Assembly (NCBI RefSeq): GCF_030684315.1
Contig: NC_081355.1
Coordinates: forward strand, 85,460,924 to 85,524,923
Source of the DNA: Stegostoma tigrinum
Taxonomy: Eukaryota
Direction: 5' to 3'
DNA length: 64,000 nucleotides
In this document: one piece after another, positions 770-60,220 of the stretch
Layout of the letters: each line of letters starts with the position of its first letter
Position numbering within the stretch: position 1 is the stretch's first letter
The notes under the pieces: model-generated
What the model was told of the DNA's origin: nothing
The model's database searches: none
What the model saw: the letters and a program-made list of their open reading frames with translations, nothing else
Program-made: the position numbers and the translations under genes

Positions 770-1930
770 GGATAGTTAAGGAGGCATTTGGGACACTTGC
801 AATTATCTGTCAGGGCATAAGAGCAGGGAGGTTATTTTAGAGCTGTACAAACTTTTGGTCAGGCCACAGCTGGAGCACTGTGTGCAGTTCTGGTAATGAT
901 ACAATAAAAAGAATATAATTGTCCTGAAGGGGTTGTAAAGGAGATTCACCAGATGTTGAGGTTGGTTGGCTTGCCAAACTGGTTTCTTGTATTGCAGACA
1001 TTTTGTTCCCACGCTGGGTAACATCCTCAGTGCAGCCTCCGATGAAGCATTGTAAAAGTATTGTCTTTTTGTAGCCAGTTAGACACGACCAATACTCACT
1101 CATCTCAATCTACACGGACAAGGAGAACCACCATTTCAACTGGGGCAACACCAAAATCCTGGTACAAGCAGGCAGAGGCAGGCACAAGAACCCCTAGAAG
1201 TCTGGCACTCTACAAAGCATGCTATTAATAAACACAACGAACTCGACCCCATATAAATTCCACTACGAAGGAAAACCAGAAGTGAGGCAATCCAGCTCAA
1301 CGGACTCCAGAGTTTGAAAACCAGGTGGGAAGACACACCGATGGTTCATCGGAGGCTGTACTGAGGATGTTACCAGCATGGTAATGAAATGTCTGCAATA
1401 CAGGAAACAAGCTTGGTGAGCCAACCAACCTCAACACCCAAAATCTGAGCTGCAAATTTACTCCAAAACCTTAAACACCAGGATGTTACTTGAGATGGAG
1501 CATTTTAGCCAAGACGACAGGCTAGATAGGTTTGGGGCGATTTCTTTGGAGCAGAGAAGTCCTGGGGCAGGAGGACGTCTAGATTTCCAGAATGAGGTGT
1601 ATAAGATTATGAAGAACATGGGCAGGGTAGCTAAAAAATTGATATTTCCCTTGGTTGAAAGATCAATAATGAGGGGGCAAAATTTTATGGTAAAGGGCAA
1701 GAGGTTTAGAGAGGATTTGAGGAAATATTTTCATCCAGAGGGTGATGGGAATCTGGAATGCACTGCCCAGGAAGGTAGTAGAGGCAGGAAGCCCCGGAGC
1801 CTTTAAAATGTACATGGATGAACACCTGAAATCTCAAGACATTCAAAGTTATGGGCTGGAAAGTGGGATTAGTGCAGATAGGTACCACAGGATCTATGAG
1901 CTGAAGGGCCTCTTCTGACTGTATGACTGT
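770..1930 (+). mobile_element. CR1 LINE 3' fragment interrupted by the family-D PLE
   Basis: It reads LELYKLLVRPQLEHCVQFW before the insert and SLEQR...EVYKIMK after it, ending in a TGACTG tail. Confidence 0.8.
953..1480 (+). mobile_element. Poseidon-type Penelope-like element 3' fragment (family D) with inverted hammerhead-bearing termini, inserted into a CR1
   Basis: It encodes RHDQYSLISIYTDKENHHFNWGNTKIL, a GIY-YIG C-terminus. About 953-1050 is the inverted copy of about 1345-1436. The hammerhead reads TGTA-CTGAGGA(1361)-T-GTTACC-AGCAT-GGTAAT-GAAA-T-GTC-TGCA. The flanking CR1 resumes at a duplicated CACCA(G)GATGTT. Confidence 0.8.
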
Positions 1931-3749
1931 AAGATATAATGGTCAAAGTAATCGCCTTCACTATGCCACCGTAATATCATATAAGACTTAGTGAAAGGTT
2001 AACCTTATTGGGTAGTTCTTTTTTAAAAAGCATGAAATATAGACTTTGTAATTTAACAAGACGGAGTCAATAGAGAAAAACGACTTGTTTTATGGTTTTA
2101 GCACAACAGTGACAAGCATCATGCCTGAATATGTCTCCAAAAAGTTATTAAAGTGTAAGGTGTCAATGGTAGTGTTGGTGATGTTTTCTCCATTTCAATT
2201 AGACAGAGTTAAAGTTACAATGACTGTCAGACTTGCTGACCCAATGGAATTTCAAATAAAGACATTAAGGAGGCAATTTATGACTGGAGCTTTGATGCAA
2301 TATCATTTATTCTCCATTGTGTCAATCAAATCTGCATTCAACTCTTTCTATGGATAAAAAAATACATTGATACTGATATCACATGGCTGAAACTGATTGG
2401 AGAAGAAACTATAAGACGCAGGAGCAAAAGGAGGCCATTCAGCTCTGCTATTTAACCAAATCTTGGCTGATAATCTTCAACTCCACTTTCCTATCTTTTC
2501 TTAATAATTCTTGATTTCCTTATTGATTAAAAATGCATCTGTCTCAGTGGCCTTTTGCACTCCAAGAAAAATAAAATATTATCTCACTTGATTTAAATTG
2601 GCATCCATGTTTTTGGTTCTCTAATTCTTGCTTTCATTTCTCGCCTCTTACAGCCGTGATTCATTATGGAGTACTATTCTAGAACTAGCACAACTGTAAT
2701 AATTCGGTCATGTGATCAGTAATTACTGCTGGCAACTGCTGTAATTACATCCCTACAAGTTTACGTAGAAAATGTTCCGTTATTAATGTTGTCATGGGAA
2801 CTTCGAAAAATGACAGAAATGAGGGTAGATTAGCACCAGTTTCAAAGCTAATTCATTGCCACCAAAGGAAAAAAGTCTCTCAAAAAATTCTCTAACATTT
2901 TCTGGAAATTATACAATTGTTCAGCATCTTTTTACAAACTTACACAGATGCTGCTTTGTTCTAAATATAGAGGTTTAAGTATTGACAAATTTAAGCAGCA
3001 TTAGTACAAGTAGTGTAAAACATCTGATTAATCTAGAACCATCTAATATGGAACAAATTATCCGTTGACATTTTTATGAGCATTAGTGACAAAGTTTAAG
3101 ATCTCAAAGAGGAAACATCTGTAACGGGTACTGCTACAAAAATAAATACTGTAATGGTGAATGTTATAATAGAGCACAATGAAAATGTTGCATCTTGGGC
3201 TTTGGATTTCTAGATGTACATTTGTAAAATATTCTACATTTAAAAACTATACAATGAGTTTTCTAATACTTCTGCTGTTCAAATTTGAACAAATCATGTA
3301 AAACCCTATTTGTAGAGTCATAAACATGACCTGACAATAAAGCGACTCAGTTGACAACCACCCACTTAAAATATCATATCAGCATGTCATATTAACTACA
3401 ACTATCATGTTTCAGTTTGATATCCTCTGAAAGAGAAATGAAAACAACCTCTGTCTCATGGAAAATAAAGGGAAATACTTTTCCAGCGGCACTTTATTGC
3501 TGTGAATTTAGCCAAGTCGATCACATCTAAAAGGGCATGTTAACAAAAATAAAATTGTGAAATTGACCAGGAAATACAGCAAAACGAAATGGTGGATCAC
3601 AGAAGAGGAATGGTCGATAACAGGCAATGCTGATTTATTCATGGGGAATTTATTACTTACATAATGAAAGGTTAAACTCAGGAAATGTCAAAGATGACAA
3701 TGAATAATAGCCTTCTAATGCCTAACAGACATTTATTTCATTCATTATA

Positions 3750-4070
3750 TCATAGAATCACAGGTAGGAGCAGGGTCCATCCATCAGGGTCCACACCAAC
3801 CCTTTGAAGAACATACTGCCCACACCCACCTCTGAATCCATGCATTTACAAATGGTGAATCCACCTAGCCTGCACATCCCTGGACACTATGGGTAATTTA
3901 CCATGGCCAATCCACCTAGCCCGCACATCTTTGGACTGTGGATGGAAATTGGAGCACCCCAGAGGAAACCCACACAGACAGGGAGAACATGCAAACGCCA
4001 CACAGTTGCCCGAGGCTGGAATCGAACCCTGGTCCCTAGCACTGTGAGGCAGCAGAGCTAACCACTGAGT
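3750..4070 (-). mobile_element. HE1-type SINE (older copy)
   Basis: This is a reverse copy with the B box GGTTCGATTCC and a duplicated CCACCTAGCC(T/C)GCACATC unit. Confidence 0.85.
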
Positions 4071-4949
4071 TGTCATTTCATACATGGACAAATAATGAAG
4101 GAGCTAACAAACAAACTAAACTAAAATTATGAACAAAATCAGAAATTGGTGGAAAAGCTCAGCAGCTTTTCGAAAGTGCTGTTTTCTCTCCATAGATGCT
4201 GCTACAACTGTTGATCTTTTGCAGCAATTTCTGATTTTGTTTCCAATTTCCAGCATCCACAGCACTTTGTTCAAAAAGATAGAATTATCTTTGGTAATTA
4301 GTTCAGCTCGAACTGTGCCATAATCCCTGGCACTGTCCAATTCAGTAACTTATCCAAATCAGCTACAATATGAAGTAATGCACTGCACTTGCCAACCAGA
4401 TAAAAATATTTAAATGGAATGATCAGACAAAGATGAAAGATGACCATCACTTTTTAATAAAACATGGATTTCTAAACGCACTGTGATGAGAATGCAATAT
4501 TTGTTGGTGAAACAAGCGCCACTAGCGTTAGCCCCAAATACAACACAAGACAATTTTCTAATAAACAAAAAGGTATCAAAGTGACCAAAGAGTCAAAACA
4601 ATCATGTATCAGTGGAGTGATTTTAAATTGTCATTTTCAGCATTTTATGATTCATTAATTTGACATGCACATGATTTGAGTGAAATGGATTCCATGAAAA
4701 AGGACCTATAATGTTACACTGATATACAAAATAGTGCCAGTTGAAATCCCATATAGATGAATCCAAGGTTTTACACAATGTCTGGAAAGTGAATCTTAAG
4801 TGTATACTAAGGGGAAATATTAAAATAACTAAGACTAAAATAGATAAACATGTCGATGTGGTAGCAGATTTAACATATCAGGTCAGCAGTTAGTGAGGCT
4901 AAAACATCAATTAAAATAGTTGAGAAACAGAAAATAGTGTGAGATTTGA

Positions 4950-5046
4950 GGTAACAAAGTGTGGAGCTGGATGAACACAACAGGCCAAGCAGCACCTCAG
5001 GAGCACAAAAGCTGATGTTTTGGGCCTAGACCCTTCATCAGAGAGA
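4950..5046 (-). mobile_element. PLE-A terminal fragment with a decayed hammerhead
   Basis: The reverse complement reads CTGATGAAGGGTCTAGGCCC-AAAACATC. GAAACG has been lost through CpG decay. Confidence 0.8.
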
Positions 5047-7910: not shown

Positions 7911-9274
7911 ATCTTCAGTACGAATTGTAAACTATCCAAAATTTGCCACTCATATCTGTTTCATACTTCAATATATTATTTCTACTCTCAGTTACTGAAA
8001 TTGCCTCTCTAACCTTCAAACGATCTAAATGAAACCTAAACAAATCCCATCATGGCCTCACCTATCTTTGTAACCATTTCTTCCCGCAAGTCCTCTGGTT
8101 CTATATACACACCCTCTACCCCACAGTTCATGATTTAACATATAATCCCACTTTCTGAAACTCCACCACCCCTTACTTCTCAGAAACTCCTTAAAAAACC
8201 CTCTAATGATAGTAAATTCTAAGGGAAAATGACAATCAAAAGTGCAAAAACAAAGCATGAGAAGATAATGGGAGTGAACAAAAGTAAATCCAAATATTCC
8301 ATTGGCACATAAATAATAAAAAAAATAGGAAACAGAGAAGTGGGACCAATTAGGATGAAAGGCTAAAAAGGCGTGTGTGAGGTATGGCTGAGATACATAT
8401 TAATTTAATATTAATTCAGTACGTACCAAGCAAGACCTAAGTTCTAGGCATGACACTTATGAATGCATTAGAGTGTGTGCAGAAAAAGAAATCATGAGAA
8501 TTGTTCTCGGGTAAGAACTTCAGTTGTGAATAGATCTCAAAGGTGGCAGCAGTCTTGAGAATTAGAGGACATCAATTTAACGTGATTGACAACAAAAGAC
8601 AGACAACAGTGAAAAAAAAACTTTTTATAAGTAGTTGGGAATCTGAAACGCGCCGACAGTGTGGGGTGAAATCTGTTAAATCGATGCTTTCAAAACAGGT
8701 AGGGGAGTGGCACTAGTCCAAGATTCTGCACTAACACGATGAGCCAAATGGCCTGCTTTTGCTAGCACCATTCTCTAACCTGCTGTCCACTGTGGGAAAT
8801 TTTGTTTTGTGATTTAAAGAGATAATAAATGCGATTTGTTGAAATTGAGAATGAATCACTGAAGTGGCGTTTCTGTCTAATTCCTAACCGCCCCCACCCC
8901 GTCCTCTTCGTTAACTAAAAGCCCAGCTCCGAGAAGAGGATTCTGGTCTCGTTTAACCGGAGCTAATTTCTGAGACACCGGTAAAATAAATAAAATAAAA
9001 CTGCGGGGAGCTGGAGATGTGAAACAGAAATAGCTGCGGAGGAACTCAGCCGGTCTGGCAGCGCCTGTAGACTGACACCAAAACTGTGAAGAATAACTCT
9101 GCTTTCTCCCCACACAAGCGGCCAGCCCTGCCGAGTTCCTCCGCTTATTTCTGTCTTTTGTCACCCCGGCGTGCGGAACCAGTGACAGGCCCGGCCTGTC
9201 CCTTCCCTTCACCCCGAGCCGGGCTGCGATGAACCCCAGGTCCTGAGGCAAGAGGCTCGGCCTTTAACAGTTAC

Positions 9275-9451
9275 CTTCCGGAGGGAATCCCTCAGACTGT
9301 AATGCTCCTGAGTGTAGATAATGTCCTGAGGCGGTGACACCGAGCTTGTTTCACGGGCCGCCTTCTCCGAGTAACATCGGGCCCGGGCCCGGGCCCGGGC
9401 CCCGGCCCCGATCCGGCTCCGCAGGAACATCCGACACCCGCGGGAGACCAT
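9275..9451 (-). CDS. Coding exon 1 (59 codons) of a mitochondrial acyl-CoA dehydrogenase family gene, probably the 'probable acyl-CoA dehydrogenase 6' type. No downstream exons were found in the window.
   Basis: The ATG has a strong Kozak context (ttaaccATGG) within a CpG island. Translation: MVSRGCRMFLRSRIGAGARARARARCYSEKAARETSSVSPPQDIIYTQEHYSLRDSLRK. This is an Arg/Ala/Ser-rich, acid-free presequence followed by an ACAD N-terminal helix motif (YTxEHxxLRxSLRK). The exon ends at a phase-0 donor, AAG|GTAACT, at 9275/9274. Confidence 0.75.
9379..9402. repeat. Self-complementary (GGGCCC)4 repeat inside the ACAD exon
   Basis: Read directly from the sequence. It encodes ARARARAR on the minus strand. 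Confidence 0.95.
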
Positions 9452-9742
9452 GGTTAACTGAGAGTGCGCAGGCGCCGCAGCAGATGGGGTAAAGCGGGGG
9501 AAATTGGAGACAGTGACCCGGGGGCTAGGGGACGGGATCCCAAGGGAGGGTGATAGGTGTCAGTATCACGGGGAAGGAGGACTCAGTATCTTGAAGAAAG
9601 TCAGTACCCGGGGGGCAGGCATGGTCAGTATCCTGGGTGAAGGTCAGTGATCACATTCAGAGGGGGTATGGTGTACTGATTAAGTGACTAGGATAAGACG
9701 AATGGTGGGGTAGAGATGGTTAAACAGAAGGAGCAAGCGAGT

Positions 9743-9833
9743 GATGAAGGGTCTAGGCCCGAAACGTCAGCTTTTGTGCTCCTGAGATGCTGCTTGGCCT
9801 GCTGTATTCATCCAGCCTCACATTTTATTATCT
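9743..9833 (+). mobile_element. Stand-alone 91-bp PLE-A terminal fragment carrying a partial hammerhead
   Basis: A perfect 14-bp TSD, AGGAGCAAGCGAGT, is at 9729-9742 and 9834-9847. The insert starts GATGAAGGGTCTAGGCCCGAAACGTC. Confidence 0.85.
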
Positions 9834-12417
9834 AGGAGCAAGCGAGTTGTCGGTTGAGGGTGTTGATGGAATGGTGCAGGGTCTGGGTCAGGGTTGGGGT
9901 GTATGCATTTGGGGGAAGACAGCGTAGAGAGCCCGTGGGCTGGAGGTTTTCGTGGTAAGTGCCAACATTCTGAAGATGAGTCATTCTGGATTCAAGACAT
10001 TAACACTGTTTGTATCCCTATAGAAGCTGCCTCGAGTTTCTGTAGCACATTCAGCTTCTTATCACTGTGGAACATCTTGAAGCTATAGTGTGTTGACTAC
10101 TTGCACCACTCCAAAGGTCATCACCAAATTTGTTAAATCTGGCAGCTGGGAGTACTTACTTATATATTAAGAAAACTCAGTGGTGCGTTTGCAAACCTAG
10201 CAAATTTGCTTAAATTAAAGAATGCCAATGGCTTTGCACAGCCTACACTTCAGTAGAAGGTAGTTCAAACACAATACATTTTTGTGAAAGTACAGCATAT
10301 GCTGAAAAGTCACAAAATGCAAAACCTAAAGATTACTATTAGTAAATGAAGTGAGATTCATTTTTAGGTTAAAGTTTAACCTGTTTGGTACATTTCGTTT
10401 TGTAAACTAAATGCCATTTAACTTGCTAAATTGGATGTGAATGAGTTCAAAGTCTAGTACTCAGAACAGTTCCACTAATGTTGACTGCTCTCTGTAGCAA
10501 TGTATTTGCTTGTTATTGTGAAAAACAAATCAAACACATTGATTGCAAAATACGTTGAACAGCTATAGGAATACCCATTTCTTTATTTTTCCGAAAGGAA
10601 ACTGGAAACAAAGGTGACTTCACAAGCATTAATGGAAAAATATACTTGTATAAATCAAAGTCTATATTATGTAATTTTAGTGAAGTTTATAATCAGCAAT
10701 TCTGTAGCAGAATTTTTCAAGGAATTAACAAAAAAAAACTGGGGATACTGGAAATCAAAAAAAATTACTGGGAAAACTCATCAGGTCTGTCAGCGTCTAT
10801 GGAGAGAGAGCAGAGTTAATGTCTCAGGTCCAGTGATCCTTCAGAAGCAATTTCAGCAATTTATGTTTTGTTCCAGGAATTCTTCTGCAGAAAAAATTTC
10901 ACTTCAGAAATATACTGTTTATTATTTCATATAAATAGCATAGGAGAAGAAATTGACCCAGTGCCTGGCTCACATTTGTTCCTTGACTCTTAAAATATAT
11001 AACATTTTAAAAATGATTTGGAAATGTTTTTGAGATCTTGCTGTTTGCAAATCCTACCTTATTTTAATAGCTTTTAATGGCTTTAAAGCACATTGGGATG
11101 GCCTTAGGTCTTGAAATGTCCTCTATAAATGCATCTTTTTCTACAGTAGTATCCAAATATACTATAAAAATTATTAATTTAGAAATAATTATAGCATTTT
11201 AGGAATTTTGCAGTGTACTCTGTACAAAATTTTCATAAACACAAATACTTTTCTCAGAAACTTTTTCAGATACTCTTAAATTTTAAGATGTAAAGGCATT
11301 TCAATCACAAGACAAAGGGTCTGCAGGAAAGGAACAAAAAAGGGAGTTTGTTTTCAATTGTAGATTAAGTGATACTCTGTATAATAATCAACTGAATTAT
11401 TGAATTGTACCATGACATACTGGCTTTGTTATATTCTGTAAATTATGCAGCATGGGGACATTGTTTTTCAAGTTGCTAACCAAGCTACAAGACCAAATTT
11501 AATATATTTGGGGCTCTCTACAAACTGCAGAAAATCTATATTGTACTATAGAAAACCTTCCATCAACATTTCTAAAAAAAGTACTTAATTTTGACTTGTT
11601 TTATGTTTCTACATCATTCATTCTAAGATCCAACACATTATTCACGACTCAATCATTTGGACTTGCATTCTGTGATTACACTTTCTTGCCAGTGAGAACA
11701 CCGGCTTAGTTTTGTGTCCCCAGCTCTGCTATCACCATTATTGCAACTAAACCTACATCTCTGCTTTTAAAATTGCTGTATGTTCTGCTAATTAAGTAAA
11801 ACAACATAAAATCACAATATCACACAAAATGAGATCAGAATGTACGAACTTGAAATAGAGTCCCATGTGCATGCTTTTGTCAAGTTAGCCCTCCTCCCAG
11901 CGGATGTCACATTATATTCTTGGATTAGTACAAGACATAACATTTGCTATTTGCACTCAAATTACTTTTTACTCATTCTTCCTCCCCAACTAAGATGACC
12001 TTTACATTGTTCACACTGCCCCACTAAGAAGCACATTTTCCTTTACGCATTCCTGCATTTGAAACAGACTCATCGTGTATTTATTCACCCCACTGAGAAG
12101 CACTGTCACTTTGTCCAAACTTCCTCACTCAGAAAGAATATTACTTTAGACCCGAGGGACTCCTTAATGGCTCCTATGATCTCAAGCAGACTCATGATAT
12201 TCAGCTTTGACCATACAAAGTAAAACATTTTGTTCCCCATCTGTCACCAACTGAGAATCAAGCTTGCCCCAGAACGCCTCCCCAATGCAGCACATCTTTG
12301 CCCTCACCTGCCCCAGGTTTACCTTAATCTGAAACGTCCTCTCAGCTAAATACTGATTCAGCTGTGTGTCTGCCATCCCCTCCACCACTCTCACCCAAGC
12401 AACATCTTGAGTTTGTA

Positions 12418-13093
12418 AGATAATAAAATGTGAACCCCGCAAACCATTTCCACTCCCCCTCCCATTCTTTAGATGACATGTCCATCATGGGCCTCCTGCA
12501 GTGCCACAATGATGCCACCCGAAGGTTGCAGGAACAGCAACTCATATTCCGCTTGGGAACCGTGCAGCCCAATGGTATCAATGTGGACTTCACCAGCTTC
12601 AAAATCTCCCCTTCCCCCACCGCATCCCAAAACCAGCCCAGTTCGTCCCCTCCCCCCACTGCACCACACAACCAGCCCAGCTCTTCCCCTCCACCCACTG
12701 CATCCCAAAACCAGTCCAACCTGTCTCTGCCTCCCTAACCTGTTCTTCCTCTCACCCATCCCTTCCTCCCACCCCAAGCCTCACCTCCATCTCCTACCTA
12801 CTAACCTCATCCCACCCCCTTGACCTGTCCATCTTCCCTGGACTGACCTATCCCATCCCTACCTCCCCACCTATACTCTCCTCTCCACCTATCTTCTTTT
12901 CTCTCCATCTTCGGTCCGCCGCCCCCTCACTCCCTATTTATTCCAGAACCCTCACCCCATCCCCCTCTCTGATGAAGGGTCTAGGCCCGAAACGTCAGCT
13001 TTTGTGCTCCTGAGATGCTGCTGGGCCTGCTGTGTTCATCCAGCCTCACATTTTATTATCTTGGATTCTCCAGCATCTGCAGTCCCCATTATC
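12418..13093 (+). mobile_element. 5'-truncated Penelope-like element (family A): GIY-YIG C-terminus, 3' pLTR with hammerhead, and a short inverted 5' cap
   Basis: It encodes ANHFHSPSHSLDDMSIMGLLQCHNDATRRLQEQQLIFRLGTVQPNGINVDF, a PLE endonuclease tail. A 16-bp TSD, ACATCTTGAGTTTGTA, is at 12402-12417 and 13094-13109. The 5' end AGATAATAAAATGTGA is the inverted copy of the 3' TCACATTTTATTATCT. Confidence 0.9.
12965..13000 (+). ncRNA. Minimal type-I hammerhead ribozyme motif with an intact core
   Basis: The motif reads CTGATGA(12969-12975)-A-GGGTC-TA-GGCCC-GAAA-C-GTC. Predicted cleavage is after 12996. Stem III is reduced to the palindrome ACGT. Confidence 0.75.
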
Positions 13094-13619
13094 ACATCTT
13101 GAGTTTGTATCTTTGCACCCGTTCACATTTTTAAATACATTTATAGGTTGCAGTTGTGCTAACAAATTCAGCATTTATTGTCCGTTCTTATTGTTTCATC
13201 AAACAACTGATTGGCTTGCTCCATTCAAAAGGCAGTTAAGAGGCAACTACATTGCAATGGTCTGAAGTCTTATAAAGGCTGGAACAGCTAACGACCACCT
13301 CTTCCCCAAATGATATCAGTAAACAAGTTGGGGTTTTATGACATTCTAGTAGTTTCATCATTGCCATTACTGAAAATAGTTTTTGTTTTAAATTTATATC
13401 TTTTTTCACTCATTGATTTTGAATTCCCTGACCGATGCAATGGGATTTTAATTCGCATTCCTAAATCATCAGACTGGGTCTTTGCATTATTAGCTCAGTG
13501 ACAGAAACTCTCCACTAACCATTTTGGCACTTTCCCATTGTGTTTTCCCTTTCTTGCAGTTAATCTCAGATGCAAATCACCAATGGTACAAAGTGCCATT
13601 CCATATATTTGGTCACATA

Positions 13620-13985: not shown

Positions 13986-15419
13986 GAAGAATGGGATTTT
14001 GACCTTTGACCATTTTACTACTTTTGTGATAATTAACTTTCTCAGCCTGCAACACTTATTTTCCTGAAGCACAGAAGTCAGTTGCAAATTTATTGTTCAC
14101 TGCTGAACACTTTCAGTTTCAGAGCAGCGATATATTATGGTTAGAAGAATGAGGTTAGGTAATATGAACTACATAAAGTCCCACTGTTGAGGGAATGCGT
14201 TCCTAGTTAAACATCCTAAACTGTGGAATCACGAACAATGAACATTGTTTATAATAGGAGTCAACAGAATAAGTTCCAGCTTTATCATACTTTAGGTAGC
14301 TGAAGAACACATTTTCTGTTGTGTGTCCATGCCAGCCATAGTACAACAAATCAGTCCCTCTTCTCATTGGTGTTGGTTTTTATGGTAAAAATAGAAGGAA
14401 CTGCAGATGCTGTAAATCAGGAACAAAAACAGAAGTTGCTGGAAAAACTCAGCAGGTCTGGCAACATCTGTGAAGAAAAAAATCAGTGTTAACGTTTCGG
14501 ATCCTGTAACCCTTCCTAGAACACTCAGTGTTCTTGGTTTTTATGGTGCTGTAGTAACATCCCTTATCGCTGAGCCATGAGGCCTGCGTTCAAGTACGAC
14601 CTGCCCTGGACGCATATAATAACATGTCCAAGCTGGTGGATTAGAAATTATTTAGGAATTAATGTTTACTTTCTGGCATCTTTTTACTCATGAGTGCAAG
14701 ATGAAAAGCTTCAACTTCATGTCTCTATTTAGTACTGTTAAATTCGATACTACCACACAATTATTTTGGTTAATATATATAAAATGCTAGTTAGTCTGCA
14801 GCATGGATTCAATTCTGAACATAACAGAAAGAAGGGATCTCAAAGGTTTGAAGAGGATGTTGGAAGAAAAATACAAGAATTGCATCTGGAAGAGGGAGCT
14901 TGATTATGCAAAAAGACCAATGAAACTGGGATTGTTCATTTTAAAGAAAAGATGAGAAAGAGATTAGTTAGAGACGTTCAAGATCATGAATGGGTTCAAG
15001 GCATAAATAATAACTGTTTGCAGTACCAGAAGTAACAATGTCCAAGAACACAGATTTAAGGTAATTTACAGTCCTTGAACATTTTCTCATCTTGCAAAAT
15101 CCTTCCTGAACCTCCATTTTGAAACTTTCCAATCAGGTATCTGTCCCTGCTTCAGTACCAAAATGCCTCAAAGTCCCAAATTACACCCCATTTGACTGTG
15201 ACCCATGTTAAATATTCCTCCTTAACATTCTTGACCTGACTGCAGCCTTTGACGCATTTGGACATGCTGTACAGCCTTCATCAAATGCTCTCTATTATAA
15301 TTCAGCTTGGTGGGACTCCAGTCATCGGGTCCCATACTCATCAGTCTGATGATAGTTGAAGTATAACATGCAGTGCCTTACCTTCTGTTCTTGGTCTCTA
15401 CATATGTGTCGGGTGGGAG

Positions 15420-17190: not shown

Positions 17191-18629
17191 GAGATGGGCA
17201 CAGCTCAACCTCCAGTCCTCCATCCTCCAGAAGGAGAAAGAAATAAAATGTGGGACTGATCCATACTTGTCTTGTTTATCTTAATATGGAATTCCAGTTC
17301 ACATTAACGCCATCGTCTCCATGTTCTACTAATTTAAATACATTTTGCTAACTCACCCCATCCTCGACACAACTCAGATAAAAGCAAAATACTACAACTG
17401 CTGCAAATCTGAAATACAAACAGGAAGTGCTGAAGAAACTCAGCATGTCTAGCAGCACCTGTAGAGAGAGAAACAGAGTTAATGTTTTGAATCCAACTGG
17501 TCTCTTCCGAACAATCCCAATATGGCTCTGAAGCAGAGCCATATTGAGCCCAGAATGTCATATTGACTCTTCAGATGCTGCCAGACCTGCTGAATGTCAC
17601 CAACCTGACTCATCTCTCCACTAATACAACTTACCCCAAATCCTCCCCAAGCAAAGTTCTCTTGAGCAAGATGGCAAATCTTGGAAAAATGCAGATAAAA
17701 TAGCAAAGTCAGATTCCTAATATCAAGAAAAGATTTATAATTCTGTCCTTAGGGCTAAACGGCAAGTTCTGAATCTCACTAATGAGTAGCAGTTACTTCT
17801 TTCCATGCATTTACATTGCATTCTTAGCTGATAACACCTTATTTCTATGCGGTTCCTGATTCTCTTTGCCCTCCGCAAGATACCAGATGGCATCAAATTC
17901 TGGCATGAAACTTAGAACAGTTAGCAGACAGCTGCAGATTGCTGTTTGTTTTGTCCAACTCTGTCCTCACAGTATTGTCCGTGCATGGACAATGTCCTCT
18001 TGCACCATGCAATTTGGCATAAGCAAAGCAACAGCTTCACCAAATAACTGCAGCTGCTTTTCGACCAACTCCTATACACTTGTGCCATCTTTGGTATGCT
18101 TCTGCCAGATCTCTGCATGCAGGGACACACACACACATCTCATGCAGCTATGCAAGATCCATCCTATGGAGCTTAGTTTACTTTATTTGCACATGCTCAC
18201 TTTTTATTTACTTGGAGACAGCCACCTTTCGTGGTAAATATTGCTTTTTAATGCATAAGAGAAGGGCAGGTAACTTGCTATCATTTGAAATATTGAATAG
18301 TGGAAGGGATAGACACGGTGTTTATGCCAATGTAGTATTTCAGTGTCACACCTACAGTAAGTGCCAAGAGTTCCCACAATAAACTTGCTGCATCTGCTTG
18401 GGACTAGTCCTTACCTGGTCAGTCAGGGCCCATGGTCAGTCAAGGATACCATCTGTTTACAGTTCAGGGCTGGGACCATTTATTTTGTAATGAGTCGAAC
18501 GGAGGGATTTAGTCTGCTGGAAGTGGCTGGAAGATCAGTTAGTAATGATTGGCAGAAGAGGAATTAAGCTGTTCCCTGTGAATAAGTAAGAAATTCAGAA
18601 TGCAGCAATGGCTAGCAGTTTAGGACGAT

Positions 18630-23160: not shown

Positions 23161-23441
23161 CTACAATATGTCATTATGTAGAAAGTACTTTATAAGTGTT
23201 AATTATTGTTAGTTATTTATAAAAGATATGCCAAATTATAAACATCATCAAAATTCTATTTTTTTAAATATTGAGATCACTAAATCTGTTCCCCCAACAG
23301 TTAATTATCCATATGAATTTTCAACAGAATGAGATACTTTGACACAATGGATTGCTACTCAGCAGAACTGTTAGAAACAATTATAGTAACTTTTATCAAA
23401 GAATTTGCTAAGGATTTATGACATAAATTCTTTCCAAAGGT

Positions 23442-34960: not shown

Positions 34961-34984
34961 TTGTAATGCCCTCTAAAACAGGGC

Positions 34985-42214: not shown

Positions 42215-42311
42215 TTTCTGAAGAAGAGTCCAGACCTGATACGTCAATTTTCCTGCCCTTCTGATGTTGTCTGGCCTGCTGTATTTCTCCAGCTTCACAC
42301 TTTGTTATCTA
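42215..42311 (+). mobile_element. Old PLE-A terminal fragment
   Basis: A decayed copy reads CTGAAGAAGAGTCCAGACCTGATACGTC and ends ACACTTTGTTATCT. Confidence 0.65.
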
Positions 42312-44740: not shown

Positions 44741-45037
44741 AGATGGTATAAGTGATAGTATGAATATTTAATGGCAAAGCTCATCTTGGGTTGAATGTGA
44801 CATAAAAGGTTGTGAACACAAAGTTTTAGTCTCAGTCTTTTCTTCAAGTGAAAGAACTTAAGAACAGGCAATAAAGATCATGGAGGATACATTCATTGAT
44901 CTGTCATTGAAGTTGGACATTACTGTTTGACCTTTCTTAGAGAATCAATTGTTTCATTCTTCAAAACTACCACATCCTGAACTTTCTAACACTGTTCATT
45001 TCCATCATCTCTGGCAACCACTTCCATACTTTCAGTG

Positions 45038-45147
45038 ATAATGGGACTGCAGATGCTTGAGAACGATCTAGGCCCGAAACGTCAGCTTTTGTGCTCCTAA
45101 GACACTGCTTGGCCTGCTGTGTTCATCCAGCTCCACATTTTGTTATC
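45038..45147 (+). mobile_element. PLE-A insertion with a short inverted 5' part
   Basis: The TSD TCC(A/G)TACTTTCAGTG is at 45023-45037 and 45148-45162. Confidence 0.8.
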
Positions 45148-45911
45148 TCCGTACTTTCAGTGCCTATTTCGTGAAATGATTGAATGTAAACTTTTATACT
45201 TTATTGAATCAGTCACTTCTACTGATTGCAGACAAAATGGGCAGTGTTACAAAGATGCTTCATGTTTTCCAGCCAGGATCTTTCGATTTGGCCTGAAAAC
45301 TCTTCTTCCACCCCAAATGAGTTAAAACATAAAAACTGAAAGCTCAGCAGGTCTGGCAGCATCTGCGGAGGAGAAAACAGAGTTAATGTTTTGGGTCTGG
45401 TGACCCTTGGAATCTGCAGTTCTTTTGGTTTTTATAAAAACCAAAAGAACTGCAGATGCTGCAAAACAGGAACAAAAACAGAAGTTGCTGGAAAAGCTCA
45501 GCAGATCTGGCAGCACTATGAAGAAAAAAATCAGATTTATCATTTCGGGTCCAGTGACCTTTCCTCAGTGAACTTTCCCTTTTATGTTAGAAATCTTTAT
45601 TTTAGAAGTCTAACTCTAATCCTAACCTAATACACACACAGAAATGGCATTTGTACAGCTTATTCAACAACCTAAGTAATTACCTTCGCCCAAACGTCAG
45701 CATGTGTTCTGTCATGCAAAGTTATACAGCAGAATCATTCAAAAAATTCATAAATTCTCAATTGAATAATACAACAGTGCATAACATAGGTTATATTAAA
45801 GAAAAAAAATAACAAATTTGGTAAAGTATTCTAAGGGACCGGGACTGTGAGACATGTTATATGCACCATTGATTGCACTTCTGGACTGAGAAAATGATGG
45901 CCAAGTTAAAG

Positions 45912-46554: not shown

Positions 46555-48035
46555 ATAGACTTATAGAGTAATACAGCATGGAAAGGGCCCTTCATCCCGA
46601 CTAGTCTATGCCAACCATGGCACCCACTCAGCTAGTTCCAATTGCCCACATTTCACCCACATCCCTCTAAACGATTCCCATCCATGTACTTATCCAAATA
46701 TTTTTTTAAATGTCACTATTGTACCTGCCTCAACAATTTTCTCTGGCAGCCCATTCCATATACACACCAGTCCCTGCATGAAGAAGTTGCTCCTCAGGTC
46801 CTTTGTAAATCTTTCCCATCTCACCTTAAACCTATACTCTCTAGTTTTGAATTCTCCATCACTGGGAAAAAGACTATATGCATTCATCTTATCCATGCCC
46901 CTGATGATTTTATACACTTCAATAAGGTCACGCCTCATCCTTGTATATTCCAAGGAATAAAGCCCTATTCTGGCTAATCTCTGCCCTATCCTCTTGGTTA
47001 GCTGTTTGAAAAACTCTAAAAGATTAGTCAAACATGATTTCCCGCTTACAAATCCATGCTGACTATCCCTGATCAGACCTTGACTATCCAAATGCTGGTT
47101 GATCCTGTCCCTCAGTATCTCCCCCAATAACTTGTCTACCAGTGGTGTCATGCTCACTGGCCTGTAGGTCCCTGCCTTGTCTTAGCTACCTTTCTTAGGC
47201 AATGGAACAACAACAATTAGCCACCCTCCAGTCTTCAGAAACTTCACCACTGGCAAAAGATGAAACGAATATCTCTGCAAGGGCCTATGCAATTTCTACC
47301 CTAGCATCCCACAACATCCAGGGATAGAATTGATCAGGCCCAGAGGATATATCCACCTTAATGCACGATAGGCCTGGAAACACCTCCTGTCTGGTAATAT
47401 GTATGCAGTCTAAAACATTCCCACTTGTTTCCCTTATTTTCTTAGCATCCGTGATTCTCTTCTCAGTAAACACTCAGGAGAAATATTCATTAAAAATCTT
47501 CCCAATCTCCTTTGGCTCCACACATAGCCATGCTGATCTTTGAGAGGACCTGTTCTCTCCCTAGCCAACCTTTTACTCTTAATACAGCTTTCGAACTTCT
47601 CAGAATTATCTTTAACCTTATCTGCCAGATCCATCTCATACCCTCTTTTTGGCTGTTCTGATTTTCCTTATAAGTGTGCTCTTTCACTTTTTATTGTCAT
47701 CTGGGGATTCATTTGAACCTGATAGCTTAAACCCGATGTATGCTGCCTTCTTTTTCCTGACCAGAGCCTCAATATCCTTTGTCAGCCAGGGATCCCTAAA
47801 CCTGTCAGCTTTTCTCTTCACCCTAACAGGAACATACTATGCCTGGACTCTTGATATCACACTTTTAAAAGCGTCCCATTTGCCAGTCTTTCCTTTTCCT
47901 TTTCACCCAATCGACTTCTGCTAGATCCTGCCTAATGTTCCCAAAATTGGCCCAGCTCCAATTTAGCACATTAACATGTCGATCTGTCCTATCTTTTTCC
48001 ATAACTATGTTAAAGCTAAGAGAGTTATGGTCACT
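46555..48035 (-). mobile_element. CR1 LINE with an internal deletion
   Basis: The RT motif SQHGFVSGKSCLTNLLEFF is joined directly to the C-terminal LYSLEYTRMRRDLIEVYK. Confidence 0.85.
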
Positions 48036-48707: not shown

Positions 48708-49022
48708 TTAGATTAGATTCCCTACAGTGTGGAAATAGGCCTTCGGCCCAACAAGTCCACACCGCCCCTTGAAGCATCCTACCCAGACCCATCCCCCTAT
48801 AACCCACGCACCCTTGAACGCTATGGGCAATTTAGCATAGCAAATCCACCTAGCCTGCACATCTTTGGACTGTGGGAGGAAACCGGAGCACCCGGAGGAA
48901 ACCCACACAGACACGGGGTGAATGTGCAAACTCCACACAGACAGTCGCCCGAGGCTGGAATCAAACCCGGGTCCCCGGCGCTGTGAGGCTGCAGTGCTAA
49001 CCACTGAGCCACCGTGCCACCC
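48708..49022 (-). mobile_element. HE1-type SINE
   Basis: This is a full-length reverse copy, highly similar to 38762-39075. Confidence 0.9.
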
Positions 49023-51874: not shown

Positions 51875-52610
51875 TAGAACAAAGAACAAAGAAAATTACA
51901 GCACAGGAACAGGCCCTTTGGCCCTCCAAGCTTGAGCCAATCCAGATTCTCTATCAAAACCTGTCGCCTATTTTCCAAGAGATAATGGGAACTGCAGATG
52001 CTGGAGAATCCAAGATAATAAAGTGTGAAGCTGGATGAACACAGCAGGCTAAGCAGCATCTCAGGAGCATAAAAGCTGACGTTTCGGGCCCAGACCCTTC
52101 ATCCTATTTTCCAAGGATTTGTATCCCTCCGCTCCCTGTCCATTCATGTATCTGTCTAGATACATCCTAAATGACACTATCATGCCTGCCTGTACCACCT
52201 CCACTGGCAACGCGTTCCAGGCACCCGCCACCCTCTCCATAAGGAGCTTTCCATGCATATCTCCCTTAAACATTTCCCCTCTCGCCTTGAAATTGTGATC
52301 CCCAGTAATTGATTCCCCCACTCAGGGAAAAAGCTTCTTGCTATTCACCTTGTCTATAGCTCTCATGATTTTGTAGACCTCAATCAGGTCTCCCCTCAAC
52401 CTGCATCTTTTTAATGTAAATAATCCTAATCTACTCAACCTCTCTGCATAGCTAGCGCCCTCCATGCCAGGCAACGTCCTGGTGAGCCTCCTCTGCATCA
52501 TCTCCAAAGCATCTACATCTTTTTGGTAATGTGGCGGCCAGAACTGTACACAGTTTTCCAAACGTGGTCGAATGAAAGTCCTATACAACTGTAACATGAA
52601 TTCACCCAAT
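51875..52610 (-). mobile_element. CR1 LINE 3' fragment
   Basis: It encodes LQLYRTFIRPRLENCVQFWPP...[12 protein letters not shown] and has a GAACAAA tail. Confidence 0.9.
51980..52102 (-). mobile_element. PLE-A terminal fragment inserted in a CR1 3' end
   Basis: The TSD CCTATTTTCCAAG is at 51967-51979 and 52103-52115. Confidence 0.85.
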
Positions 52611-53519
52611 TCACATAGTTAAAATGAAAATGATCATTCATTAAATAAAAAGTATGAACTCTAGTCAATTTCATTTTTGTCATCCCCAGCACATGGACTG
52701 CATATGTTGCTTTTAAAATATGCAGGTCTCCTAAAGGTTGTCGGCTGTTCATATGATATCTGCTCCTTCGAGGGCAATGTTCTTTCTTGGGAGACTGTTG
52801 TTCAGATGATGAGTGCTGTTACCATGGTAGTTTTTGCTGACTCATTTCCATTGCTTGGGAATGGTGGATCGATGGAACTGATGGTTGTTCTGTACTTTGT
52901 ACTAGTGGTGAGATTACATCTTCCTGATCAGCTGCCTGTAGTGAAGTCACAGCTTTCCTTGTGCATACAGACCTGTGGATGCAACAGTACATCCAGTTGT
53001 TAATGTTCACTGCATCTGATCAGTTATTGAACATGGATCCCAGGTTTTTTCTAAGTTGAGACCAATAAATGTTTGCACAATAACTTGCTCTCCATTGCAC
53101 AGTTTTACCAAAGTGAAATTCAGCTTTCTGCCATTTCATTTGGATTTTGTTACTTGCGCCTTGCTACTACTTCTGGGCTCAATAACTTTTTCCTGCTGGA
53201 AGAGTAGTTTGGCTCCAGTGTGACATTACTCTTTGGACTGAATGGTTTCAGGAGTTGTATTTTGTTACTCAAGGCCTTGTACAAGCTTTGCTCAATTTAG
53301 TTACGATTCTTTGGTGATTTTCACTGCTGTATCAGCCTTTCCATTTGACTGGGGATGCTGTTGACTTGATCTATGATATTGGATTCCTCAACTCTTCAGA
53401 AAACAGCTGCATTCTTTACCTATGAATTGAGGCCATTGCCGCACACTCAATTTCTGGAATGTCCTGATGACTAAAGTGTAGTGTCAGGCATCCTACAAGC
53501 TCAGTGGTGGTCAGGTGGT

Positions 53520-55600
53520 AGTTATAGAGTCATAGAATCAGACAGCATTGAACTAAGCCTTTTGGTCCTCCATGTCTATGCTGACCAACAAACACTAAAC
53601 TTCACTAAGCCCATTTACCTACACTTGATCCATAGGCCGTTGAGTGCTGGCATTTTAAGTCCTCATCCAGATGCTGCTTAAGTGTGGCGAGAAGGTCTGC
53701 CTCTATCACCCTCAAAGGTAGTATGTCCCATATTTCTACCACCCTCTCAGTAAAAAAAAATTCTGAAATCTCCTCACCTTAAACTTATGCCCACTGGTCT
53801 TAGACAAGCCTGCCATAAGGAAACGATTCTCACCATCTATCCTGTCAATACTTCTCATCATTTTATATATCTCAATCAGATCCCCCCTCAGGCCTTTCTG
53901 CTCCAAGGAAAACAAACTCAACCTGTCCAGTCTCTCCTCATAACTGAGATTTTTCATCCTAGGCAACATCCTGGTGAAACTCCTTGCACCCTCACCAGTG
54001 CAATCACATCTTTCTGGTATTGTAGTGACCAAAACTGCACATAGAATTCCATCTGTAGCCTAACCAACGTTTTATAAAGTTGCAACAAGACTTCCCTGTC
54101 CCTATACTCTATGCCCCAGCTAATGAAGGCAACCATCCCATATTCCTTCTTTACCACCCTGGTTACCTGTGCTGGCACCTTCAAGGATCTATGGTCTTGT
54201 ACACCAATGTCTCTTTGTTCCTTAGTCCTCTCTAGACACCTACATTCATTATTTTGATCCTTCCCTTATTGGACCTCCTTAAATGTATCAGCTCGTACCT
54301 AACAGGATTAAATTTCATCAGCCATTGTTCTGCCCAATTTAACAGCTGATCGATATTCGACTGCAGTCAGACACCATCCTCCTTGCAATCAACAACACCA
54401 TCAATTTTTGAGAGATAGTAGGAACTGTAGATGCTGGAGAATCTGAGATAACAAGGTGTAGAGCTGGATGAACACAGCAGACCAAGCAGTATCAGAGGAG
54501 CAGGAAGGCTGATGTTTTAGGCCTAGACCCTTCTTCAGAAGAAGGGTCTAGGCCCGAAACATTAGCCTTCCTGCTCCTCTGATGTTGCTTGGCCTGCTGT
54601 GCTCATCCGGCTCCACACCTTGTTATCTCTTACCATCAATTATTGAGTCACCTTCTGCATTCACATCCAAATCATTAATGTATGCAACAAACAGCAATGA
54701 TGCCAGCACTGATCCCAGTGGTACACAGCTGTTCATAAGCTTCCAACCACAAAACAACCCTCCACCATTATCTTTCATCTCCTATTTGAAAGCCAATTTT
54801 GGATCCAATTTGGTAACTTGCTCTAGATCTCATAGCCTGTTACCTTTTGGACCAGCCTTCCATGTTGAACCTTGTCAAAGGCTTTACTGAAGTCCATTTA
54901 AACTATATGAACTGTGCTACCCTCATCAGTGTATTTATTCACCCTCTCAAAAAATTCATTTAGGGGTCAGACAGGAGCTCCTCCAACAAATCTGTGCTGA
55001 CTATTCCTGGTTAACTACCACCTTTTCAAGTGTTGATTAATATTGTATCTCAGCATTTTTTTCCAGTAATTTCTCTATCACTGCCCTATTCCTGCTGCCT
55101 TTCTTGAACAAAGGAACCATATTAGCCATCCTCAAGGCATCTGGCACTTCTGCTATGGCCAGCAAAGTATTAAATATCTGCTACGGCCCCAGAAATCTCC
55201 TCCTTTGTCTGCCACAGCCGCCTGGGATACATCTCATTAGGTCCTGGGGATTTATGCATTCTTATGCCTGCTGAAACGTCTAACACCTTCTCCTTGTTAA
55301 TCTTAACATTTTCAAGAACATCACTATCCCATGGAAATCTCCAAACGCAATGTCTTTCTCCTTTGGGAGTACAGATGAGAAATGTTCATTTAAGACCTCA
55401 CCAACATCTGCTCACTCCATGCAAAGATTCACCCTTTGGTCTCTAACAGGCTCCATTCTTTCCTTTATAATCCTCTTAATCTTAATATATTTATAAAATG
55501 CCTTGGGCTTTTTCTTAGTCCTATCTTCCAAAGATAATTAATGATCCCTCTTTGCCCTTCTAATTTCTTTCATAAGCAACCCCCTACACTCGCGATACTT
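53520..55600 (-). mobile_element. CR1 LINE 3' portion nested in the Gypsy element
   Basis: CR1 ORF2 motifs (LQLYKTLVR, SLEQKGLRGDLIEIYK) are present. This copy is itself interrupted by the PLE-A palindrome. Confidence 0.85.
54413..54631. mobile_element. PLE-A near-perfect palindromic dimer inserted in a CR1
   Basis: The arms meet at CCCTTCTTCAGAAGAAGGG (about 54528-54546). The TSD ACCATCAATT(T/A)TTGAG is at 54397-54412 and 54632-54647. Confidence 0.85.
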
Positions 55601-57109: not shown

Positions 57110-59430
57110 CAAATGTAGACTGGGACTGCCATGGTGTTAAGGGCTTGGAAGGAGAGGACTTTGTTAAGTGTGTACAAGAAAATTTTATTATTCAGAATGT
57201 GGGTATACCTACTAGATTAGGGAAAGGATATACTGGATATAAAACTTAAAGTTCTAGATTGGAGGAAGGCCAATTTTGAATGTATTAGGTGAGAACATTC
57301 AAAAATTGATTGGAGGCAAATATTTGCAGATAAAGGGATGGCTGGAAAGTGAGAAGCCTGCAAAAATGCGATAACACAAGTCCAGAGACAGTATGTTTGT
57401 GTTAGGGTGAAGGGTAAGGCTGGTAGGTGTAGTGAATGCTGGATGACTAGAGAAATTCATGTTCCGGTCAAGAAAAGTAAGGAAGCATACGTCAGGTATA
57501 CATAGCAGGGATCAAGTGAACATCTACAGGAGGACAAGGGTAGTGGGAGTACGCTGAAGGGGAAAATCAGGAAGGCAAAAAGGGTTCATGACATTGGCTT
57601 TGGCAAATAAAGCTAAAGAGAATCCAAAGGGATTCTACAAATACATTAAAGATGAAAGGGTAACGAGGCAGAAAATAGAGCCCCTTAAAGAGCAGCAAGG
57701 CCACCTACTAATCTGACCGCAGAAGACGTTTGAGCTACTAAATGAATATTTTGTGTCAGTGTTTACAATGGAGAAGGATGTGGAAGATAAAGAACTTGGG
57801 GAAATAAATAGCAAAATATGAAAAATATCCATATTACAGAGGCTGTATTGCTGGCGCCTTAAAATGCATGAAGATGGATAAATCCCAGCGACCTGATCAG
57901 GTGAACTCTAGAACTCTGTGGGAAGCTCAGGAAGTGATTGCTGGGCCCCTTGCTGAGATATTTGTATCATCGATAGCCACAGGTGAGGTGCCAGAAGACT
58001 GGACATTGGCTAAAGTGGTGCCATTATTCAAGAAAGGTGGTATGGAAAAGCCAGGGAACTATAGATAAGTAAGCTTGACATCAGTGGTGGGAAAGCTATT
58101 GGAGGCATTTCTGAGGGACAGAATTTACATGTATTTGGTGGGCAAGGACTGATGAGGGATAGTTAACATGGTTTTGTGTGTAGGAAATCATATTTTGAGT
58201 GAGTTTTTTTGAAGAAGTAACAACGAGGATTGATGAAGTCGAAGCGGTGGACATGGTCTATATGGACTTCAGTAAGGCATTCAACAAGGTTCCTCATAGT
58301 AGACTGGTTAACAAGGTTATATCACAAAGAATACAGGGACAACTTGCCATTTGGATACAAAATTGGCTCGAAGGTAGGAGACAGAGCGTCATGGTGGAGG
58401 TTTGGCTTTTTGGACTGGAGGCCAATGACCAGCAGTGTGCTACAAGGATCGGTGCTTTTTGTCCTTTATGTGAGTGATTTGGATGTGAACGTAGGAGGTA
58501 GCGTTAGTAAGTTTGCAGATGACACCAGATTTGCTAACGTAGTGGACAGCCAAGAAGGTTATCTCAGAGTACAATGGGACTTTGATCACATGGGCCGATG
58601 GGCTGAGAAGTGGCAGATGGATTTTAATCTAGATAAACATTAGGTGCTATGTTTTAACAGGGGAAGTCAGGGGAGGACATGTACACTTGATGGTGAGGTC
58701 CTGGGGAGTGTTGCTGAACCAAGAGAACTTGGAGTGCAGGTTCACAGCTCCTTGAAAGTGGAGTTGTCGGTAGACCAGATAGTGAAGAAGGTATTTGCTA
58801 TGCTTGCCTTTATTGGTCAGTGCCTTGAGTATAGGAGTTGGGAGGTCATGTTGCAGGACATTGTTTAGGCCATCTTTGGAATCCTGTGTTCAGTCTGGTC
58901 TCCCTGCTATAAGAAGGATGTTGTGAAATTTGAAATGGTTCAGAAAGATATTACAAAGATGTGGCCAGGCTTGGAAGGTTTGAGCTGTAGGGAGAGGCTG
59001 AATAGGCTGGGGCTATTTTCTTTGGAGCATCAGAGGTTAAGGGATGACCTTACAGATGTTTATTAAATTGTGAGAGCCATGGATATAGTGAATAGTCAGG
59101 GTCTTTTTCTCAGGACAGTGGTGTCCAAAACTAGAGAGCATAGGTTGAGGGTGAGAGGAGAAAGATTTAAAAGGGACCTAAGGGGCAACACTTTCACACA
59201 GAGGGTGGTGCATGTGTGGAATGGGCTGCCAGAGGAGGTGGTGGGGGCTGGTACGATTACAATATTTAAAAGGCATCTGAATGGGTGTATGCATAGGAAG
59301 CGTTTAAAGGGATATGGGCCAAATGCTGGCAAATGGGACTTGATTAATTTAGCATACCTGGTCAGCATGAACGAGTTGGTCTGCTTCCGTGTTGTACATT
59401 TCTACGTCTCCATGCCTCTAAGTCTGTGAT
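57110..59430 (+). mobile_element. CR1/HER1 LINE ORF2 (RT domain to 3' end), decayed; the longest copy in the window
   Basis: Motifs include VPEDW..AKVVPLFKKG..EKPGNYR, VDMVYMDFSKAFNKVPH, QGSVL, SKFADDT, WAEKWQMDFN and FTQRVVHVWNGLP, followed by a 3' tail. Confidence 0.95.
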
Positions 59431-60125
59431 GCTCATAGATTAGACAAAGAAGCAGTCCTTGTATCCTACACCTTGATTTCAATGTATAAATAATTAGCAG
59501 ATGTCCTATCCATTCCACAGCCTCATTTTGAGTATGTAATAGTAGATCAATATTTTCCATCTACGGTTTATTTTCACAATGCTTTCATGTTTTGTCTGAG
59601 AACATAGACATCTCCTGGACTGTTTTTAACCATGTCAATTCCCTGCTGGTACCTCATCTGAGTAACAATTTTCGTTAGAGTGTTGATGAGTAATTTAACA
59701 GTGGAGGAGAGCAATATCACAAGAAATTTATCCTACTCGTGACTCAAAGTCTGCACACATGCACTGTGAGTCTGAAGTCACTGGTGGTGATCAGAAGCAG
59801 GAACCTGGCTGATTTTCTCCTTCCCAGCTCAGGCAGCTGAGGCAGTAATAGGATACTTGATGTTGTATTAGCAAAGGTCAGCTACAGCCTTTTTATTCTG
59901 GAGATAGTATTCCTACTTCGAATGGTGTCTGATTCAGGGTGGAGGTGGGATTGGATGTCAGGGGTCCTGCTATTGCAAGAGGTCAGGAAAGGGGTAGGTC
60001 AGGGGTGTGTGGCAATTTGAGGTGTTAACACATAGTTATCCAGGATTTAGACTCAGTTTCAGATCAACTTTTAATTCATCAAATTAGAGCTTTCCAGATG
60101 AAAGGGTGTTATCCACTGAAATCCA

Positions 60126-60220
60126 TTTCTGAAGAAGGGACCCAACCTGAAATGTCAAGCTTTCCTGTTCCTCGGATGTTGCTTGGCCTGCTGTGTTCAT
60201 CCAACTTCACACTGTGTTAC
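60126..60220 (+). mobile_element. Old PLE-A terminal fragment just upstream of the Kunitz exon
   Basis: It reads CTGAAGAAGGGACCCAACCTGAAATGTC followed by GCTTGGCCTGCTGTGTTCATCC. Confidence 0.7.

Follow-up and report, generated by a model that had tools for sequence, protein, structure and literature searches.

Hammerhead motifs at the ends of Penelope-like elements in a 64-kb stretch of a shark genome

How should a crowd of putative hammerhead ribozymes in an animal chromosome be read, as catalysts at work or as what mobile elements have left behind? The question is raised by 64,000 nucleotides (nt) of the shark Stegostoma tigrinum (assembly GCF_030684315.1, contig NC_081355.1, forward-strand positions 85,460,924 to 85,524,923; hereafter the window), in which a preliminary description, made from the letters only, had recognized one catalytic skeleton recurring in several repeat families derived from Penelope-like elements (PLEs). 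We conclude with considerable confidence that these motifs are the PLE minimal hammerhead and that the roughly 33 copies are probably inert, decaying end-pieces of many separate insertions. The identification itself, which agrees with the earlier one, is carried by the match to the published consensus, by PLE endonuclease tails and by an insertion architecture typical of PLEs. The association of ribozymes with PLEs has been in print since 2014, and all that we add to it is shark examples; what deserves to be followed up is the fixed 5′ end that the copies show at the ribozyme core.

The motif and the elements that carry it

A strict descriptor of the minimal type I hammerhead (CUGANGA, an optional extra base, a stem II of at least 4 bp, GAAA, paired positions 15.2 and 16.2, then U and any base but G) was run over both strands of the window and returned three sites, at 1361, 12969 and 28940. 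No match was obtained in 40 block-wise dinucleotide shuffles (mean 0, maximum 0); when a 2-bp stem I was also required, another 40 contained a single match between them (mean 0.025, maximum 1). When one core mismatch was allowed, ten sites appeared, against a mean of 0.67 and a maximum of 2 in 15 shuffles; eight of them lie inside repeat families, and 13984 and 15675 fall outside every family found. A simpler pattern yielded three sites, including 29413, where 0.26 were expected. Rfam had no hammerhead family at E values up to 10 among its 17 matches to the window.

Four families, A to D, had been distinguished, and the catalytic skeleton is indeed present where it was first placed: in family A at 12969 and 28940, in family D at 1361 and, on the minus strand, at 29413-29386 in family C, a single decayed copy of the GAAA-GCT type (29325-29590, 5′ limit approximate) with a broken stem II. 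The family D helices also stand as described, with a stem II of GTTACC/GGTAAT and a stem I of TGTA/TGCA at 1361 and of TGCA/TGCA in the inverted partner (1030, minus). The two sites given for family B are present as well, but both are mutated in the core. The first is the plus copy (C3 at 25453) of an inverted pair at 25315-25515 with a 15-bp duplication, and reads CUGUGGA, with A6 changed to U; the second, at 39722, belongs to an inverted pair at 39577-39831 in which both motifs are broken, and has G12 and G16.2 changed to A and the fifth pair disrupted. As to the stem II of GGGTC/GGCCC proposed for family A, 4 bp with a tetraloop are realistic, whereas the fifth pair would close a loop of 2 nt.

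The core boxes (CUGANGA, GAAA and UH, in type I order) are intact at 1361, 12969 and 28940, and the boxes are intact at 29413 too. Families A, B and D all have an extra base between A9 and 10.1 as well as the pair G10.1-C11.1, which is G-U in D at 1361 and G-C in its inverted partner. The palindrome at 15.1-16.1, without a loop III, is ACGU in A and in the best B copies, AGCU in C and AUGU (with a wobble) in both D copies, while stem I measures 2 bp in A, 4 bp in D, three of four pairs in C and, by eye in old copies, about 3 bp in B. The D motif at 1361 has G-U wobbles at 10.1-11.1 and 15.2-16.2, and one more pair of this kind within its 4-bp stem I. Position by position, all four families fit the published PLE consensus, NNN CUGANGAH G...C GAAAN-palindrome-NU H, whose examples include a 2-bp helix I and a GCU palindrome (PMC4209133). 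The minimal hammerheads of that study share with ours the type I order, the extra base between A9 and 10.1, the G10.1-C11.1 pair, a palindromic 15.2-16.2 region without loop III, a short helix I, the occurrence of many families per genome, and a majority of solo truncated and opposite-strand copies; the stem II of A and B, at 4-5 bp, differs from the 7-8 bp of its schistosome families (PMC4209133). The two supplement files of PMC4209133 that were searched contain no shark term.

Profile searches, together with anchoring on the GAAA box, give 33 termini that carry at least part of the motif, if anything more than the 25 or so of the first estimate: 16 of family A, sitting in 13 insertions, 14 of B type (18 candidates were examined and four dropped as unrecognisable), one of C and two of D. 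The three strict sites are only 3 of the 33 termini, and most others have decayed, often at CpGs. None of the 14 B-type copies keeps an intact motif, yet each core position is intact in some B copy. In family A, 6 of the 14 ungapped copies carry a change at G12, which is part of a CpG; non-CpG changes amount to 2/109 in the core against 31/714 downstream, a count biased toward the core, with no clear constraint. Altogether 29 PLE-like pieces were delimited, spanning 5,915 bp, or 9% of a repeat-rich window of 40% G+C.

On the evidence of one window, the earlier view of this genome as exceptionally rich in such sequences is plausible. Three intact motifs in 64 kb correspond to about 47 per Mb. 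With a host genome that we take to be a few Gb in size, intact motifs would be of the order of 100,000 if the window were typical, a one-window extrapolation well above published counts. Those counts are 4,000 motifs in coelacanth and 9,000 in Xenopus, which the density extrapolated from this single window may exceed (PMC4209133). Public contigs over the family A stretch number 281,813 and 262,487 in two runs, a figure that is not a copy number.

The link to PLEs is closest in the longest family A insertion (12427-13093, plus strand, with a 16-17-bp target duplication), which comprises a 15-nt inverted end piece, an endonuclease tail, a pyrimidine-rich 3′ untranslated region, the hammerhead and a pseudo-long terminal repeat (pLTR) with a 32-nt tail. 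Its 5′-truncated GIY-YIG C-terminal part (12439-12624, plus) matches proteins P0001 and P0002, named from zebra shark and whale shark, the tail protein (12427-12612) being 97% and 93% identical to them (tblastn, E 5e-78). These relatives carry a reverse transcriptase (RT), a CX4CXXC linker and a GIY-YIG domain; Pfam places RVT_1 of P0002 below its cut-off (E 9e-5) and GIY-YIG above it, and the window itself has tails only. The intact hammerhead (12967-12998, plus; C3 at 12969, G12 at 12989, predicted cut after C 12996, a 2-bp stem I of CT/AG) is the sole A copy with long native upstream sequence.

The family D insertion (953-1475) is composed of an inverted short pLTR (953-1055, minus, G12 to A) and, on the plus strand, an endonuclease tail, the hammerhead and a tail. 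The hammerhead (1357-1397; C3 at 1361, G12 at 1386, predicted cut after C 1393) has an intact core. The endonuclease tail, a frameshifted GIY-YIG C-terminus (1081-1322, plus), was recognized by tblastn of P0017 (76-77% identity, E 4e-28); a word-indexed protein search found nothing for it, and P0015 and P0016, among its three phmmer matches, were dropped as repetitive and unrelated. P0018, another relative, extends from the RT thumb through the endonuclease without a Zn-finger linker, and the D relatives have no Pfam match, but they align to P0002. Neptune and Nematis elements are arranged as RT, Zn-finger linker and GIY-YIG, Nematis also having the linker, and Penelope/Poseidon elements are without such a linker (PMC8557442). 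Our elements share the C-terminal GIY-YIG with the Neptune and Penelope/Poseidon clades, the A relative having the linker and the D relative none, and by linker presence or absence only, family A would be of Neptune type and D of Poseidon type.

Three families had been said to be tied to GIY-YIG tails, which holds strongly for A and D, weakly for a B-like copy and not for C. The B-type copy is an old one (27400-27817, plus, C3 at 27694) with a likely frameshifted GIY-YIG tail that ends at about 27612, some 80 nt upstream, and matches weakly (nhmmer E 0.01, second of 456 bins); besides this stretch (27400-27612), no such tail was found upstream of C or of the other A and B copies. Outside the shark sequence, the A/B pattern occurs at one locus in metagenome contigs and at none in genome and viral contigs. 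That locus (L001:118-145, minus) has a different PLE-like tail, the A/B stem II arms, a mismatched 1.1-2.1 pair and an unrelated flank. The window also holds a decayed Neptune-type PLE fragment, from the RT thumb to the start of the endonuclease (36299-36766, plus, E 4e-15 to P0002), downstream of which no hammerhead was found.

The notion of four families with different flanks has to be revised: across the downstream sequence, the B profile matches most A copies and the A profile matches B copies, and C, a single broken copy, gives no testable consensus. Since the stem II arms are common to A and B, and the sequences that follow are homologous by reciprocal profile matches, we count the two as one lineage. 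Between lineages, the stems differ by eye with pairing kept: GGGU/GCCC against GUUACC/GGUAA(C/U), a GAGUC/GAUUC variant at 9970, and a palindrome of ACGU against AGCU. Read from the sequences, these differences follow the pattern of the 2014 paper, in about three lineages, too few for statistics.

Where the copies begin and end

The motif is present in 15 short A copies. In 12 of these the first base lies between -4 and +5 relative to C3, and in none is it at the cut site (+28). The B copies, judged by eye, likewise tend to begin at or just before C3. Target duplications of 13-17 bp (one mismatch allowed) flank 11 of 13 A insertions, and 3 of 13 B-type intervals tested have duplications of at least 12 bp, a length reached in 1 of 300 random intervals; head-to-head inverted pairs, with the tail on one arm, are common. 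Penelope of Adineta shares inverted 5′-truncated copies, a tail at one end and target duplications, which are 8-10 bp long there compared with 13-17 bp here (PMC3846280).

A second view of these ends comes from public contigs of the DNA-like runs X9 and X12, which may include the source sample and whose loose ends were counted over 12400-13120. Among the 24 ends listed, the top 5′ end is 12968, one base before C3 (839 contigs in X9, 849 in X12), with heterogeneous flanks (agreement 0.37), and none is a 5′ end at 12997. The 3′ ends among those listed are 13061 (675 in X9, 651 in X12) and 13093 (653 and 656), 32 nt apart, and amount to an optional tail of that length. We infer that the 5′ end of A is roughly as well defined as the two 3′ ends, in contrast to what random truncation would give.

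Comparable ends are known from the Poseidon element PAc of Anolis carolinensis. In vitro, the RT of this element starts inside the RNA at two closely spaced sites, which determine the tail; the hammerhead of PAc requires the protein for cleavage, mutants of the hammerhead remain able to insert, and the cut site is not seen as the end of any read (PMC11167929). PAc and the shark copies share a hammerhead near the start of the open reading frame (ORF), an optional tail (30-40 nt in PAc) and the absence of ends at the cut site, but PAc has been assayed biochemically, whereas the shark families are known from sequence alone (PMC11167929). The fixed 5′ end at the ribozyme core is a feature of shark family A, and the available part of PMC11167929 does not describe it for PAc. 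A Drosophila element begins 46 nt upstream of its intron, which puts its start elsewhere than at the core (PMC2377424, PMC6155905). A literature search outside subscription journals, Repbase, Dfam and the 2017 dimer paper found no shark-specific report of a PLE hammerhead and none of a fixed 5′ end at the hammerhead core. Lunse et al. reportedly treated dimer cleavage of PLE hammerheads and may already list shark variants.

How, then, could a copy have a fixed 5′ start without cleavage? This would be explained if the RT copied from an internal site to the 5′ end of the RNA, and the short A copies are likely solo pLTR cDNAs made in this way, without ribozyme cleavage. By analogy with the anole element, the two 3′ ends would represent two internal RT start sites, and an RT that started some 92 or 124 nt away from a fixed 5′ terminus of the RNA would run off there and produce a solo unit. 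The RNA 5′ end would lie one base before the catalytic core, with the 5′-most repeat as template. Ribozyme cleavage was probably not needed for the short copies, and the observed ends argue against its having made their template. Once inserted, copies would mutate neutrally, and in the active parent elements the motif would have been under selection as a dimer-type or protein-assisted ribozyme.

A fuller version of this account can be put forward tentatively, as a possibility that we hold to be somewhat less likely than not. The 92- and 124-nt repeats would be solo pLTR cDNAs with their 5′ end fixed at the first base of the core, a very-high-copy in vivo footprint of internal RT starts on the 5′-most repeat. 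The upstream hammerhead, having no stem I arm, would be locked in an inactive hairpin, and in this lineage the ribozyme would mark the RNA start, either switched off or cut in trans only by the downstream copy. Shark genomes could inform the role of the PLE hammerhead in vivo, as very many dated insertions record where the template started and ended.

Pairing, folding and other readings of the copies

Several results weigh against our main reading of the copies, and they concern the starts of the copies as well as the stems and the folding. Three of the 15 short A copies start late, at +10, +16 and +17; four further A pieces, outside those 15, begin downstream of the motif; and the count of loose ends is incomplete, with 2,570 further ends beyond the 24 listed. 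Co-varying stems had been claimed, but within families the A and B scores are no better than those of shuffles: no pair of nine has changed on both sides in A (399 of 500 shuffles reach the score), and two of seven have in B (147 of 500), in an alignment where the oldest copies are poorly registered. By percent paired (87% and 78%) the named helices do better than slid controls, but the same sequences had been used to derive them. At this level, the structural support consists of the known-consensus match and the differences among about three lineages only, family C appears here without a PLE coding link, and family B appears with a weak one. The core at 12969 is predicted to pair CUGAUG with CGUCAG in an inactive hairpin that makes up 84% of the ensemble (-11.4 kcal/mol), and for two A RNAs a long duplex is predicted at -38.0 kcal/mol versus -5.5 for a double hammerhead, in a folding model that takes no account of tertiary contacts or Mg2+. 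With a 2-bp stem I and a preference for inactive folds, family A may never have cleaved efficiently.

The hairpin fold is itself unexceptional against shuffles (z -1.65). These models lead us to expect that family A RNA without protein would hardly cleave, if at all; family D, whose stem I has 4 bp and stem II 6 bp, is a more promising candidate. PLE hammerheads in the literature either cleave poorly or depend on protein (PMC4209133, PMC11167929), and their cleavage as dimers has been reviewed (PMC6765202). Since misfolding is predicted and the published relatives behave in this way, a failed cleavage of 12940-13060, the assay that the preliminary description had proposed, would not negate the identity of the motif. 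Two further observations concern the same RNA. Stem II of family A (12977-12988) is almost self-complementary, and a pair of RNAs could join there, over 12 bp in the predicted dimer. In the younger A subfamily an ATG within the catalytic core opens a short frame (12972-13013), where the older subfamily has AAG, and a second ATG downstream may be the putative ORF start of the element.

Could the sharp 5′ boundary have a different cause than the start of transcription? The same inactive hairpin (CUGAUG/CGUCAG) might halt a 5′ exonuclease or release the cDNA, and C3 is indeed the first base of the predicted hairpin, a single base away from the dominant 5′ end. By eye, B copies tend to start at or just before C3 too, however, and the one B copy that was folded lacks the hairpin (its fold is junction-shaped), and an RT would be expected to stall on the 3′ side of such a structure; we regard this cause as unlikely, if a serious one. 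Another possibility is that the short copies form a non-autonomous family, similar to short interspersed elements (SINEs) or retrozymes, excised by the hammerhead from its own transcripts and mobilised by PLE proteins. Solo units do far exceed long ones, only 1 of 16 A copies having a coding tail, and animal non-LTR retrozymes share the type I hammerhead and the origin from PLE pLTRs, one cartilaginous fish among their hosts (bioRxiv 10.64898/2026.07.22.740005). Those retrozymes are defined by at least two consecutive hammerhead units in tandem (bioRxiv 10.64898/2026.07.22.740005), whereas the shark copies are solo, dispersed or inverted, no head-to-tail units having been seen in the repeat search of the window; in addition, the copies start ahead of the core and finish at two PLE-type sites, with no boundary at the cut site, and two short copies track the end sequence of the coding element at 94-97%. 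We therefore hold an independent retrozyme-like family to be improbable.

It is very hard to believe that even one of the intact copies (12969, 1361) acts as a ribozyme on host transcripts at this locus. Three cores are intact and at least one host exon lies in the window, but three intact motifs in 33 are what young neutral copies would be expected to leave, the rates of change in core and downstream sequence show no clear constraint, the motif needs a partner or a protein, and the three intact copies are all on the plus strand, the identified exon being on the minus strand. We give almost no credence to a chance match inside abundant repeats: the motif is short, a family counts once and Rfam gave no hammerhead match, yet in two distant PLE clades, whose stems are unrelated, the motif stands at an equivalent place after the endonuclease, and it recurs in L001 from another source and fits the published consensus.

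The remaining copies and the neighbouring features

The third intact core (C3 at 28940) is the plus copy of a family A inverted pair at 28854-29032, which takes its stem I arm from the junction and has a 15-bp duplication with one mismatch. Solo pLTRs of this family lie at 4949-5046 (minus, G12 and G16.2 mutated), 9742-9833 (plus, beginning at U4 and flanked by an exact 13-bp duplication), 23438-23527 (minus, beginning within the core) and 51981-52103 (minus, with the tail, also beginning within the core). The core is incomplete in two further insertions, one with a short inverted piece (29805-29947) and one with a short inverted tail piece (45035-45148). Both motifs are broken in the inverted pairs at 35905-36108 and 37606-37775, and a head-to-head pair at 54414-54628 is joined at the core, with the tail on one arm only. 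The plus copy of the pair at 37606-37775 (37725-37776) has an internal deletion, which begins right at the predicted cut, a single case that short microhomology explains equally well. Two older copies, at 42216-42310 and 60126-60221 (both plus), have decayed motifs; directly upstream of the 60129 copy, 60094-60125 (plus) is a second degenerate hammerhead-like stretch, which may be due to chance.

Among the B copies, that at 14386-14530 (minus) has a 1-nt deletion in the first box, two copies with a palindromic junction at 45332-45570 (minus) have broken motifs, and one at 35454-35569 (plus) begins at the 3′ arm of stem II. An inverted insertion at 33902-34027 (C3 at 33962, minus) is decayed, and the motif is decayed as well in an old B-type insertion at 10733-10876 and in an old copy at 40576-40695 (minus). 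A related variant at 9970-10057 (plus) has a stem II of GAGTC/GATTC with a 6-nt loop and a broken GAAA box, and a B-related inverted insertion at 17390-17602 is decayed.

Besides PLEs, the window contains the last coding exon of a G-protein gamma subunit gene (32752-32877, minus; Pfam G-gamma, E 9e-13), preceded by a splice acceptor; its upstream exon was not found in the window. Many fragments resembling ends of CR1-type long interspersed elements and a SINE lie at 18652-19458, 46559-47211, 52165-52820, 58015-59429 and 62267-63026 and at 26276-26405, 38818-39074 and 48766-49022. At about 9200-9560 there is a G+C-rich island with a repeated tract of GGGCCC type, possibly a promoter, and a young A copy sits some 200 nt away from it.

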